IMG/VR virus record: IMGVR_UViG_3300044695_004869
Reading direction: 5' to 3' (one strand)
Length of the DNA: 64,000 nucleotides
Source of the DNA: a virus
Lineage: Duplodnaviria; Caudoviricetes
Part shown: positions 35,392 through 63,572 of the stretch, piece after piece
How positions within the stretch are numbered: position 1 is the stretch's first letter
How the letters are laid out: each line of letters opens with the position of its first letter
Translations under genes and position numbers: made by a program
The notes under the pieces: generated by a model
The model's input: only the letters and a program-made list of their open reading frames with translations
Told to the model about the DNA's origin: nothing
The model's database searches: none

Positions 35392-35580
35392 ATGTTAATA
35401 GTACACGTAACCAAAAATGGGGGGATTGAAAGAGCCCTTAAAGAGCTGAAAAGTAAGGTGATTAAAACAAGACAAAACTCTCACCTAAATGATAGGAAAG
35501 AGTTTACTAAAAGGTCTGTTAAAAATAGAGAAATCCTTAATAAGGCTATTTATCGTCAAAAAATTAAAAGTAACGATTAA
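35392..35580 (+). CDS. rpsU: Phage-encoded ribosomal protein bS21
   Basis: MLIVHV...IERALKELKSKVIKT...L.DRKEFTKRSV.NR....KAIY matches Bacteroidota-type bS21. Confidence 0.85.
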   Translation: MLIVHVTKNGGIERALKELKSKVIKTRQNSHLNDRKEFTKRSVKNREILNKAIYRQKIKSND

Positions 35581-46389: not shown

Positions 46390-48453
46390 ATGATTGAATT
46401 TCAAGACGAAAACGAAAAAGGAAAAAAGAAACCAGAAAGTAGTGGGGGAACTCCTGTTTTGGATAACTTTAGTAAGGATTTAATTAAAATGGCAGAAGAA
46501 GGGAAATTAGATCCCGTAATCGGTCGTGAGAAAGAAATCCTACGAATTGCTCAAGTTTTATCAAGACGTAAAAAGAACAACCCTATTATTATTGGTGAAC
46601 CAGGAGCTGGTAAAACAGCTATTGTTGAGGGATTAGCAATGATGATCTATAACGGGGATTGTCCTAAAAATTTGGTTGATAAACGAATTGTATCTTTGGA
46701 TATTAATTCAATTGTTGCAGGTACCAAATATCGTGGTCAATTTGAAGAACGTATGAAAGTTATTATTGAAGAGTTACAAGCAAACCCAAATATTGTTATC
46801 TTTATTGATGAGATTCACACAATGGTTGGGGCCGGTAATAGTTCAGGATCTTTAGATGCTTCTAATATCTTCAAACCGGCGTTATCTCGTGGAGAAATTC
46901 AATGTGTCGGAGCAACAACTTTGGATGAATACCGAAGACATTTTGAAAAAGACGGAGCATTAGAGAGACGTTTCCAAAAAGTGATTGTAGATCCTTCTAC
47001 CAAAGAGGAAACATTTGAAATCCTTAAACAAAGTAAATCTAAGTATGAGGAACATCACAAAGTTAATTATACTGACGAGGCTCTTTTGGTTTGTGTTGAA
47101 CTAGCTGATCGTTATATTACGGATCGTGAATTCCCTGACAAAGCATTTGATATTTTGGATGAGGTTGGCGCAAGAATGCAAATTGACATCAAGTTACCTG
47201 AAGTAATTGAGAAACTTAAAGTTGAAGCTCAAGACATTAAGAAAGAAAAACTTGAGGTAATTAAAAAACAAAATTACGAGCAAGCGGCTGAGTTACGCGA
47301 TAAAGAACGTACCGTATTGGCTAACCTTGAGATGGAGAAGAAAAAATTTGAAGAGTATCTTAGAGTTAGTAAACGTAGTATTCCTGAAGAATTGATTTAT
47401 GAAGTTGTTTCAAACATGACCAAAATTCCGGTTTCAAAATTAAACTTGGATGAGAAGAATACGTTGGTTAATTTGGAATCATCATTATCATCTACAGTAA
47501 TTGGTCAGGAAGAAGCGGTTATGAAAATCTCCAAATCTATCCGTAGAAATCGTGTAGGTATTAAGGACCCAAATCGTCCAATCGGATCGTTCATTTTCTT
47601 AGGATCAACAGGTGTTGGTAAAACATTCTTGGCTAAACAATTGGCGAAAGAAATCTTTGGTAACGAAGAAAACTTAATCCGTGTTGATATGTCTGAATAC
47701 CAAGAGAAACACACGATCTCAAGATTAATTGGTTCTCCTCCAGGATATGTGGGTCACGAAGAAGGTGGACAACTTACCGAACAAGTGAAAAACAAACCTT
47801 ACTCTGTTATCTTGTTTGATGAGATTGAGAAAGCAAACAAAGACATTTTCTCAACACTATTACAGATGTTGGATGATGGTCACTTAACTGATGGTTTAGG
47901 TAGAAAAATTAACTTCAAAAATTGTCTAATCATTATGACATCTAACATTGGAGTTAAAAAACTACAGGACTTCGGTGCTGGTGTTGGTTTCAAAAGCAAT
48001 AGTGATATTGTTAAAGAAGAACACAAACGAGATATCCTCAAAAAAGAATTAGGTAAGTTTTTCGCACCTGAATTCCTTAATCGTATTGATGATGTTATTA
48101 TCTTCAATTCTTTGAAAAAAGAGAACATTGATAAAATTGTTAAGTTGGAGATTGATCGTTTAATGAAACGATTGACCAAAATGAAATACAACTTTACTTA
48201 CGAACCAACGGTTATTGACTTGATCTCTAAAGTTGGGTTTGATGAAACGTTTGGAGCTCGCCCACTAAAAAGAGCACTACAAGATAAAGTTGAGGATCTA
48301 ATCTCAGAAAAAATACTTCTTAATGAGGTTGTTGAGGGAACTGAATATATGTTATTAGTAAAAGACGGTGAGGAGATAGTAATTGAAACCCGTACGGTTC
48401 AAGAACCAAAGAAACGTGGTAGAAAGAAGAAAGAGGATCAACCCTCAATCTAA
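46390..48453 (+). CDS. clpC: ClpC/ClpA-family AAA+ unfoldase lacking the N-terminal Clp_N domain
   Basis: Two Walker sets ([12 protein letters not shown]; [15 protein letters not shown]), UVR-like M-domain [15 protein letters not shown]; the protein starts just before D1. Confidence 0.85.
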
Positions 48454-50824: not shown

Positions 50825-51222
50825 GGGGGTAACTTGGAATCGACTGACATAGTTGGTTATTCGGGGCACGCAGTGAGAGGGTTCCTATCACTTTAATCTA
50901 TGGAGTCAACAATTAGACGGCAACGTTCTAGACAAAATGGCGGCAATCGGTCTTATCCGTGAAGACGCTGCGGTAGTAGCCTAACAGTTAGGAAACACCA
51001 ATCGGGTCGGTGGACATACAACCTAGGAACAGAAGTCCCTACAAAGATGTGGTTTCTATCGTAAAAGGAATAAGTGGAGGATTAGTTCTCAGTAAAACGA
51101 ACCACTTTAAAAATAAGGGAATTGTGAGATTTCGGAACATTAGATTAAATGTTGACCTAAGCGTGTAGTCCTTAGTAGTCAAGATGGACAACACGAGGGT
51201 TCGAATCCCTCTACCTCCACCA
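50825..51222 (+). ncRNA. ssrA: tmRNA
   Basis: 5' GGGGGTA pairs with 3' TACCTCC-ACCA including G3-U; 5' TCGAC motif; T-arm GAGGG-TTCGAAT-CCCTC; tag ORF at 50919-50984; convergent with smpB. Confidence 0.93.
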
Positions 51223-51317: not shown

Positions 51318-51752
51318 TTAATTACCTCTTTTAATATCACGATCAATATCTCTTAATTTGATCGATTGTCGTTTATCGTAAAGTTTCTTACCACGAGCCA
51401 GAGCGATCTCAATTTTGATTAGATCCCTATCATTAAGGAATAAACGATAAGGAATTATTGTTAAACCATTTATTAACTGATTTTCCAAATTACGTAACTC
51501 TCTATTCTTAAGTAAGAGTTTACGATCTCTTATTGTTTCATGTGTTGACCCATATCCATAATCAGTTATATTCATACCTTTGATGTATAGCTCCCCATTG
51601 TTAAAATAACAATACCCTTCAGAGATGGACGCTTTACCCATTCGGATCGCTTTCACTTCTGACCCCAAAAGTTTTATACCGGCAATTTCTACCTGAATAA
51701 ACTCATATTCAAATTTAGCCTTCTTGTTGATTATGTTTACAGATTTTTTCAT
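51318..51752 (-). CDS. smpB: SsrA-binding protein SmpB
   Basis: NKKAKFEY, AGIKL.GSEVK.IR, RKLLL, LTIIP..L and GKKLYDKR motifs; start moved to ATG 51752. Confidence 0.95.
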   Translation of the reverse strand: MKKSVNIINKKAKFEYEFIQVEIAGIKLLGSEVKAIRMGKASISEGYCYFNNGELYIKGMNITDYGYGSTHETIRDRKLLLKNRELRNLENQLINGLTIIPYRLFLNDRDLIKIEIALARGKKLYDKRQSIKLRDIDRDIKRGN

Positions 51753-51767
51753 GATACAAATATAAAC

Positions 51768-60112: not shown

Positions 60113-60251
60113 TAACCCCAGTGGGAATCGAACCCACCTTGTAAACTACTTGTAATGTTTGCTTAAACCTTTCGCTCCAATCCTAGTATTAAGGAGTGTT
60201 TAACCAATTTACCATCATTTACCCACTCATAGATTACTCTAATATGGGGTC
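60113..60251 (-). ncRNA. Expanded tRNA-like RNA (139 nt)
   Basis: Acceptor GACCCCA/TGGGGTT, T-arm GTGGG-TTCGATT-CCCAC, internal D-loop-like TGGTAAATTGGTTAAAC and extra hairpins. Confidence 0.6.
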
Positions 60252-60257
60252 ATATTG

Positions 60258-60327
60258 TGGACACTGTGGGAATCGAACCCATACGATCTGATTGCAAATC
60301 AGTCGACCTGCCGTCGGCATCAGGCCC
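60258..60327 (-). tRNA. Atypical tRNA-Ala(TGC)
   Basis: Loop TTTGCAA, G3-U70, bulged acceptor stem and shrunken D-arm. Confidence 0.6.
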
Positions 60328-60337
60328 ATAAAAAAAA

Positions 60338-60527
60338 ACAAATCTTCCGTGATCACCACGGGTTTAGATTTTACCGATGGTTTGTTCCCCATCACCTGTT
60401 ACGTGGCCACGTAGAGCAGGGTCCATTACAGAGTACCTTGGGACATTCAAACTCTCCGTAAAGGTTGCGATCCTATGAGAGCCAAGGTTCCTTTCATCCG
60501 CGCTAATCGGACTTCTGTAAGATTTGT
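60338..60527 (-). ncRNA. Structured ~190-nt RNA in a tRNA spacer
   Basis: 9-bp closing stem ACAAATCTT/AAGATTTGT with nested TTACAGA/TCTGTAA, CCTTGG/CCAAGG, CTCTC/GAGAG, GATGG/CCATC and CCGTG/CACGG helices. Confidence 0.6.
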
Positions 60528-60611: not shown

Positions 60612-60692
60612 TACTGACGGTTGGATTCGAACCAACGTTTTAAACTTACCGCTACAGGCATAGATGATATAAGCATCCACTGGTACGTCAGC
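60612..60692 (-). ncRNA. D-armless tRNA-like RNA (possible TAT anticodon)
   Basis: Acceptor GCTGACG/CGTCAGT, hairpin GGATG-CTTATAT-CATCT, T-arm GTTGG-TTCGAAT-CCAAC. Confidence 0.6.
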
Positions 60693-63498: not shown

Positions 63499-63568
63499 GT
63501 CCCGTATAGTGGTATCGAACCACTCTAAAGTCGGATATGAGCCAACTTTGATCCCTGATCATACGGGA
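63499..63568 (-). tRNA. Compact tRNA with CAT anticodon and reduced D-arm
   Basis: Acceptor TCCCGTA/TACGGGA, D hairpin TGATC-AGG-GATCA, extended anticodon stem around CTCATAT. Confidence 0.6.
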
Positions 63569-63572
63569 GTTG

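Follow-up and report, generated by a model that had tools for sequence, protein, structure and literature searches.

Within a 64,000-nt stretch of phage DNA (hereafter the window, meaning the whole stretch that was analysed), the minus strand holds a 139-nt element that opens with an acceptor strand and closes with a canonical T arm and a discriminator A, and the question raised by this locus is what kind of RNA wears the frame of a tRNA around so long an interior. A preliminary description had noticed the acceptor GACCCCA/UGGGGUU-A and a perfect T arm enclosing about 105 nt, and this frame is confirmed on the minus strand at 60113-60251. Read from 5′ to 3′, the element consists of the acceptor strand, U8 and A9, a UAGA-GUAA-UCUA hairpin, a linker UGAGUGGGU, a long irregular arm, an AAG junction, the T arm and the discriminator A (Table 1).

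Table 1. Parts of the tRNA-framed element and other features of the window. Coordinates are window positions; position i of the RNA corresponds to window position 60252 - i.
Feature	Coordinates	Strand	Remarks
Whole tRNA-framed RNA, 139 nt	60113..60251	-	Model R1, 135 bits; flanks AAUAU/G and A/CAAAG are those of the neighbouring tRNAs
Acceptor stem, 5′ strand GACCCCA	60245..60251	-	7/7 pairs covary; 99.4% of cells paired (68 distinct sequences)
Variable hairpin UAGA-GUAA-UCUA, D-arm position	60230..60241	-	Relatives have hairpins with different stems at the same place
Conserved GGGU linker	60221..60224	-	GG invariant in the alignment found via the tip motif alone
Helix a, 5′ strand GUAAAU	60217..60222	-	Pairs with 60141-60146; 97.9% of cells paired, compensatory changes
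Internal-loop strand GAUG (family U-G-A-N-G)	60213..60216	-	G and A invariant in the tip-ascertained alignment A2
Helices b and c, 5′ strand	60198..60212	-	Compensatory changes at every tested b/c pair
Tip hairpin, stem CUCC/GGAG and 14-nt loop UUAAUACUAGGAUU (loop 60179-60192)	60175..60196	-	Stem 100% paired, 4/4 pairs compensatory
Purine/A-rich linker CGAAAG, 3′ of tip stem	60169..60174	-	A-rich stretch kept across the family
Helices c and b, 3′ strand	60152..60168	-	Compensatory changes at every tested b/c pair
Internal-loop strand AAGUA (family A-N-G-U-A)	60147..60151	-	A, G, U and A invariant in A2
Helix a, 3′ strand GUUUAC	60141..60146	-	Partner of 60217-60222
T arm GUGGG-UUCGAUU-CCCAC	60121..60137	-	99.7% of cells paired; 4/5 pairs covary
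Acceptor stem, 3′ strand UGGGGUU, with discriminator A (60113)	60113..60120	-	No encoded CCA; C comes next
bS21 homologue	35401..35559	+	62% identical to that of the related 322-kb phage
ClpA/ClpB-type AAA+ ATPase	46390..48453	+	Part of the trans-translation module
tmRNA	50825..51222	+	Trans-translation module; G3.U70 and encoded CCA
SmpB	51318..51782	-	Trans-translation module; 151 bits
GOLLD RNA	51838..52249	-	331 bits; directly beside the trans-translation module, 8 kb from the element
tRNA-framed RNA, 102 nt	57711..57812	-	Acceptor AGUCAGG/CCUGACU-A; Rfam tRNA 36 bits; tRNA-Leu-like D arm, 22-nt 'anticodon loop', long variable arm
tRNA-framed RNA, 84 nt	59813..59896	-	Same acceptor AGUCAGG/CCUGACU-A; unrelated interior with CCUUCC/GGAAGG hairpin
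T-arm element, weakly tRNA-Ala(UGC)-like	60258..60327	-	18.6 bits; no default ARAGORN call
Freshwater-1 RNA (RF02979)	60369..60430	-	71.8 bits, just below the 72-bit gathering score; in the array, about 120 nt upstream of the element
tRNA-like RNA with T arm, 81 nt	60612..60692	-	No default ARAGORN call
T-arm element, 71 nt	63499..63569	-	tRNA-Met only at relaxed ARAGORN threshold

The element is co-oriented with the phage tRNA array that surrounds it; this array comprises at least 17 minus-strand tRNA genes from 57.6 to 64.0 kb, and also contains several further tRNA-like elements and a candidate freshwater-1 RNA (Table 1). Across 26 loci carrying a member of the family described below, the tRNA genes all lie on the strand of the element in 25 and the 26th has no tRNA genes; spacers in these arrays are as short as 3-8 nt. 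The terminase encoded in the window is of the T4 type and about 28% identical to that of Flavobacterium phage immuto, and the window phage is a distant T4-like myovirus. The start regions of 56 open reading frames of the window (G+C about 30%) are A-rich upstream and contain GGAG in none of the 56 cases which, to judge from these letters, is the pattern of hosts that do without Shine-Dalgarno pairing, e.g., Bacteroidota; a Bacteroidota-like host is therefore probable. Taken by itself, the element has an unremarkable minimum-free-energy fold (z = -1.7), and the case for it therefore rests on its relatives.

The first homologue, about 80% identical, came from a contig sharing the neighbouring DUF6717 gene; its acceptor stem already shows a compensatory change and its helix b differs in sequence. 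The conserved 18-mer of the tip, CACUCCUUAAUACUAGGA, led to 35 viral loci, every one of which proved a true member. Viral and metagenome contigs were also scanned with split and scaffold-only patterns (GGGU...UGA.G...GUA...T loop) in order to escape ascertainment by the tip, and these tip-free patterns added viral and metagenome members, marine ones included; the scans fixed GGGU, UGA.G and GUA, so that the invariance of those bases in the late-found members is partly a matter of ascertainment. Model R1 scores 99 matches, which represent 68 distinct sequences, at 87-157 bits, and ordinary tRNAs at no more than 36 bits. Members come from marine-labelled records (TARA, ENA) and from other metagenomes, in both freshwater and marine samples, and sit in the tRNA arrays of T4-like phages whose terminases are as little as about 30% identical. 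Searched for in 185,579 prokaryote genomes, the tip 18-mer gave three matches, none of them a family member; among GenBank phages, matches ran through the T arm only and yielded no member. No family of Rfam 15 matches the element, even at E = 10, and a full-text literature search for the motif returned nothing relevant. A 22-nt identity to the tip motif occurs upstream of tRNA-Ala(AGC) copies at two places (L075 and L076) of an 813-kb contig, CBDBZY010000018.1, which is labelled as a bacterial metagenome-assembled genome yet carries TG microsatellites and looks eukaryotic; this match is probably due to chance and the contig is probably misbinned. The element is a member of an undescribed and widespread family of phage RNAs, made of a tRNA top half and a long conserved arm that replaces the anticodon arm.

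The secondary structure of this family is supported by three alignments. RNAalifold, applied to a MAFFT alignment, recovered the acceptor stem, helices a, b and c, the tip stem and the T arm, with double changes at 21 of 28 pairs. Under a specified structure, 95.2% of the cells of alignment A4 pair, vs. 31-46% when the 3′ partner is slid, and double changes affect 22 of 36 pairs; none of 500 shuffles reaches the observed values. Among the 68 distinct sequences of alignment A6, compensatory changes are seen at 26 of 28 pairs and 97.3% of cells pair, vs. 33-50% when slid, these percentages being inflated by the fitting of A6 to the model. The CUCC/GGAG helix that had been picked out from the window alone, invariant in the first set of relatives, covaries at 4/4 pairs in the set found through the scaffold (UCCC/GGGA, CUCU/AGAG, CAUGC/GCAUG). 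Homologue covariation, which the preliminary description had put forward as a check, comes out in its favour: the element is conserved far beyond chance, and it is real, not a chance fold.

The same relatives overturn most of the earlier parsing of the interior, and leave standing the interpretation of the element as a scaffold. What had been taken for a D-loop-like sequence, UGGUAAAUUGGUUAAAC, is the 5′ strand of the covarying helices b and c; an inner UCCU/AGGA helix is incompatible with CUCC/GGAG and is broken in variants bearing U or A in place of G; a further AAAC/GUUU hairpin is not conserved, its bases belonging to helix a (GUAAAU/GUUUAC) and helix b; and the supposed 30-nt insert is rather a small variable D-position hairpin (UAGA-GUAA-UCUA) followed by a conserved A-N-N-GGGU linker. 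A pairing of GAGUG with CACUC was also considered and rejected, its 5′ partner not being conserved. The D-position insert measures 13-52 nt where present and is absent in three members (L044, L059, and L066), and in 66 of 68 members the 5′ strand of the arm, from helix a to the tip stem with the loop strand and A55 included, spans 19-21 nt and the 3′ strand, from the tip stem to helix a with its linker and loop strand, 25-29 nt. The G residues of the GGGU linker are candidates for contacts with the T loop, which they would make as G18/G19 do in tRNA. An asymmetric internal loop (UGANG / NGUAR) separates helices a and b; it stays invariant even among the relatives that the tip alone had brought in, and may fold as a bulged-G module of the sarcin-ricin or loop-E-like kind.

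These pairings also bear on whether the locus acts at the level of DNA, its palindrome serving as a protein-binding or recombination site inside tRNA-like sequence. Apical palindromes of 8-12 bp would suit such a site, but 26 covarying RNA pairs surround the palindrome, the helices contain G.U pairs and are strand-specific, and the strand is that of the tRNAs, all of which make a DNA-level element extremely improbable.

A more natural suspicion is that of an unusual decoding tRNA, with an intron or an expanded anticodon arm, or of a decayed tRNA gene, as the element lies in a tRNA array between tRNA-like flanks and shares with tRNAs the 7-bp acceptor stem, the discriminator, the 5-bp T stem and the UUCRAUU T loop, both stems covarying across 68 sequences. 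However, the tRNA model RF00005, searched at E <=10, has no match on the element of the window and its gathering score of 29 bits is not reached, while ARAGORN at default settings makes no call in the sequence of any member, whether introns of up to 150 nt are allowed (-i0,150) or not. Relaxing ARAGORN to an 85% threshold produces 29 calls, which are mutually inconsistent, with many different anticodons and intron sites. The element had been judged too large for a tRNA and lacking in intron hallmarks, and on both counts the searches agree: neither ARAGORN nor the Rfam tRNA model calls it, and no intron-containing tRNA can be reconstituted from the members. Moreover, the D arm is variable or absent across members, the element is too short for a group I intron, Rfam shows no ribozyme or intron inside, and conservation is higher in the interior than in the frame, where an intron or a pseudogene would show the opposite. 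The element is neither a decoding tRNA nor intron-bearing, and a tRNA gene in disguise or in decay is a highly improbable reading.

In the alignment of 68 sequences, the discriminator is A in 58, G in 9 and U in 1; mapping by hand the ends of the three members without a D-position hairpin showed a C there. With 35 versions of the acceptor stem and such differing discriminators, a single aminoacylation identity therefore seems unlikely. In the flanks of 66 members, U stands at position -1 in 63, and A at -2 in 58 and at -4 in 62; a C comes right after the discriminator in all 66, and A-A usually follows it. The same flanks are found on the ordinary tRNAs of the window. Together with the array, the T loop and the invariant GG of the linker, they point to cleavage by RNase P, 3′ trimming and CCA addition, i.e., to a putative tRNA-type processing of the element.

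The arm is conserved, and the frame around it is exchangeable. The 35 acceptor versions are found with 17 versions of the tip, and the lengths of the arm strands vary by 2-3 nt vs. 0 to about 50 nt for the D-position insert. The window phage and a 322-kb phage with a terminase 76% identical carry the arm in different frames, only one of which has the D-position hairpin, and the tip is kept almost letter for letter in carriers with terminases only 30-46% identical. At four loci (L040, L058, L061, and L064), a local frame AGUCCUG...CAGGACU-A holds the family arm as well as several unrelated inserts, and AGUCAGG, a related frame whose D arm resembles that of tRNA-Leu, holds many other inserts in other phages and occurs twice in the window. 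An exchangeable frame around a conserved arm is what a scaffold carrying a payload predicts, and supports the first reading of the element, that of RNA domains displayed on a tRNA scaffold: one and the same arm stands in 35 acceptor stems, its strand lengths are fixed to within 2-3 nt and its tip is nearly invariant. As this family shows, RNAs of phage tRNA clusters can have a modular build, a conserved payload being joined to an exchangeable tRNA frame that would give access to the tRNA maturation of the host.

The AGUCAGG frame was observed at seven other loci (L003, L023, L043, L045, L054, L055, and L057). In general, the recurrent frame consists of the acceptor, a GGCGGAAUUGGUAGACGC D arm, an ACAGG-UUCGAAU-CCUGU T arm and a discriminator A, and encloses unrelated inserts in RNAs of 94-151 nt in many arrays. 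Its tRNA-Leu-like top half and A73 raise the question of leucylation without decoding. Given the many other tRNA-framed inserts in the same arrays, such inserts are probably a broader phenomenon than one family.

At the end of the arm lies a nearly invariant tip loop. Loops are 12-14 nt long, and the main one, UUAAUACUAGGAUY, occurs in 48 of the 68 distinct sequences, that of the window included. Variant loops include UAAUGCGCAUUA, AAUGCGCAUU, GAUGCAUC, and AAUACUAGUAUU, whose palindrome lengths are reached by shuffles at P = 0.002-0.055, and the variants found in unconstrained fashion include UUAAUACUAGUAUU, AAAAUGCGCAUUA, GUAAUGCGCAUUA, AUGAUGCAUCUA, UCAACACCGGGAUC, and several others that contain ACUAGU. 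Several variant loops are perfect palindromes of 8-12 nt. The central tetranucleotides CUAG, GCGC, UGCA, and CCGG are palindromic in 4/4 cases (the change from CUAG to CCGG was found in L190), and two adjacent central bases remain complementary across four double changes. Adjacent central bases of a loop cannot pair inside one hairpin, and under a hairpin-only model three such departures from CUAG would have a chance of about (1/16)^3. The palindromic cores and the complementarity of adjacent central bases therefore favour a symmetric loop-loop pairing of two molecules, which suggests that the tip loop may form a homodimer. The loop of the window, which is the commonest one, is an interrupted palindrome with a 4-nt perfect core CUAG and an A.G interruption, and the main-loop self-duplex (-4.6 kcal/mol) is no better than those of shuffles. 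As in a kissing loop, a self-complementary core is retained through sequence change, with the main loop taken alone not being significant. The outer arms of the palindromes also fit an extension of the hairpin within one molecule, and only the central 4 nt speak for contact between two; instead of a dimer, the loop may reflect a symmetric protein or such an extension of the hairpin.

Other roles for the tip were tried and rejected. A mimic of the Shine-Dalgarno or anti-Shine-Dalgarno sequence, or a RegB-type GGAG target, would require the letters of the tip stem to be kept, yet the stem covaries, i.e., the helix is kept and not the letters, and these ideas are therefore removed. A CsrA-type GGA loop is contradicted by the change of the middle G to U or A in several lineages. 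A mimic or complement of the sarcin-ricin loop finds only an 8-nt complement in E. coli 23S, which is at chance level, and in general the duplex energies of the tip against 16S and 23S rRNA are no better than those of shuffles.

The same data can be read in terms of a monomer, a tRNA-scaffolded decoy or sponge whose tip is an intramolecular hairpin; its loop would be recognised by a conserved protein, of the host or of the phage, or base-pair with a conserved RNA of the host. On the one hand, the near invariance of the tip across phages with terminases only 30-76% identical suggests a partner under strong constraint, the outer palindrome arms (AAU/AUU, UAAU/AUUA) can pair intramolecularly, and the self-duplex of the main loop is weak; in that case the palindromes would be due to extension of the hairpin or to binding by a symmetric protein dimer. 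On the other hand, a hairpin loop has no need of palindromic central tetranucleotides, found in four cases out of four. Complements of the loop are not enriched within the window, which contains no complementary target, and pairing with E. coli rRNA does not rise above the level of shuffles. These searches brought out no partner. No gene stands consistently alongside the RNA, no family of open reading frames being common to most loci; a phage bS21 is present in three of five carriers and in the window (Table 1), and is not universal. A monomeric decoy is an unlikely reading, though one with an appreciable chance of being right.

Another rival is suggested by tmRNA, which is matured by tRNA enzymes and whose tRNA-like domain and helix 2 (RF00023) resemble the family: both have an acceptor and a T arm, a D stem that is reduced or missing and, where a tRNA has its anticodon arm, a long irregular helix. 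The element would then be a small tmRNA-like rescue RNA that binds SmpB and enters stalled ribosomes, with the UAA/UAG of its loop as a tagless stop signal. The window phage itself encodes a tmRNA, SmpB and a Clp-type ATPase (Table 1), and some members lack the D stem. However, all 35 acceptor versions lack G3.U70 (C3-G70 stands at this place in the window) and acceptor identity is inconsistent; the family has no tag reading frame and no pseudoknots, and is about 140 nt long vs. about 360 nt for tmRNA. Variant loops are devoid of UAA and UAG, SmpB is encoded in only one of three complete carrier genomes, and the Rfam tmRNA model matches only positions 347-363, i.e., the T loop, at 12.8 bits. 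A rescue RNA of this kind is quite improbable.

The reading that we prefer is that of a phage family of tRNA-framed, non-decoding and unspliced RNAs, with tRNA-like processing and a loop-loop dimer, and taken as a whole we regard it as rather likely to be correct. The element would be transcribed together with the tRNAs of its array, and its acceptor stem, T arm and GGG linker would form a tRNA-like top half, owing to which the host tRNA machinery (RNase P, 3′ trimming, and CCA addition) would excise and stabilise it. A rod of fixed length, made of helix a, the bulged-G-like module and helices b and c, would take the place of the anticodon arm and end in a 4-bp stem with a 12-14-nt loop bearing the self-complementary core, through which two molecules could pair loop to loop into a dimer with a tRNA-like head at each end. 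Our best guess is that the RNA may occupy or bridge factors that read the tRNA elbow and acceptor; the working model is thus a stable tRNA mimic, probably dimeric, that probably engages such factors. A stronger version, of which we are doubtful, is a natural RNA-only homodimer that presents two tRNA heads at fixed spacing, by way of rigid arms and a palindromic kissing loop, and bridges or blocks two tRNA-binding sites; were it true, T4-like phages would produce it from their tRNA arrays and could bridge or block, e.g., two ribosomes, or two tRNA-processing or tRNA-cleaving enzymes, at once. The self-complementary tip makes dimerisation directly testable, and the family, with 68 distinct sequences and very strong covariation, is a good target for Rfam curation and structure determination.

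Several known systems share part of this design. HIV-1 DIS and other loop-loop dimers have a self-complementary apical core flanked by A/U, with GCGC and UGCA types that are also met here; unlike DIS, the family belongs to a tRNA mimic and not to a viral genome, in its commonest loop an A.G interruption leaves a perfect core of 4 nt, CUAG, and dimerisation is predicted. GOLLD and ROOL form RNA-only assemblies (PMC12286853), whereas the family stands in a tRNA-mimic context and is not a cage-forming RNA. A GOLLD RNA is encoded in the window (Table 1), and at locus L048 GOLLD and tmRNA adjoin the tRNA array. The tRNA-like domain of YrlA, a bacterial Y RNA (RF02553), and mascRNA are, like the family, non-coding mimics of the elbow and acceptor that use tRNA enzymes, although the two ends of YrlA RNA lie in its Ro-binding stem and those of the family in the acceptor stem; the YrlA model has no match on the element, and the mascRNA model reaches 14.8 bits against a cut-off of 42.5 bits, through the T arm only. 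In the engineered 'tRNA scaffold' of Ponchon and Dardel, a payload RNA reportedly replaces the anticodon arm of a tRNA, whose top half is said to provide processing and stability in bacteria. The family shares this exchange of the anticodon arm for a payload and can be regarded as its natural counterpart; the laboratory design keeps the D arm, whereas in the natural family the D-arm position is variable and the payload is one conserved arm.

The nearest comparison is with T4 itself. To our knowledge, stable non-tRNA RNAs have been known from phage tRNA clusters since T4, and their role was never found. Like the family, T4 RNA C and RNA D are small stable RNAs of a T4-type tRNA cluster, on the strand of the tRNAs. 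T4 rnaC (NC_000866 70908-71046) is annotated at exactly 139 nt; its 3′ part consists of a canonical T arm, CCGGG-UUCGAAU-CCCGG, and then an acceptor-like strand, hence it is itself tRNA-framed, and its fold is far more stable than those of shuffles (z = -4.6). The element has the layout of this type, lying in a T4-type tRNA cluster, on the tRNA strand, with about 120-140 nt and a tRNA-like 3′ part. On the other hand, rnaC has no detectable homology to the family (R1 gives it 20 bits, the level of ordinary T4 tRNAs), its interior has neither the UGANG/NGUAR module nor the CUCC-loop-GGAG tip, and no self-complementary apical loop is seen in its predicted fold. RNA C (species 1 RNA, rnaC) and RNA D are expressed late, as seen by Northern blot (PMC9697503), and their role is still unknown (PMC3014915, PMC9697503). 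The family is the same kind of object as T4 RNA C, without being homologous to it, and the homodimer, if true, would be a first mechanistic lead on what the stable RNAs of phage tRNA clusters do, a puzzle now 50 years old.
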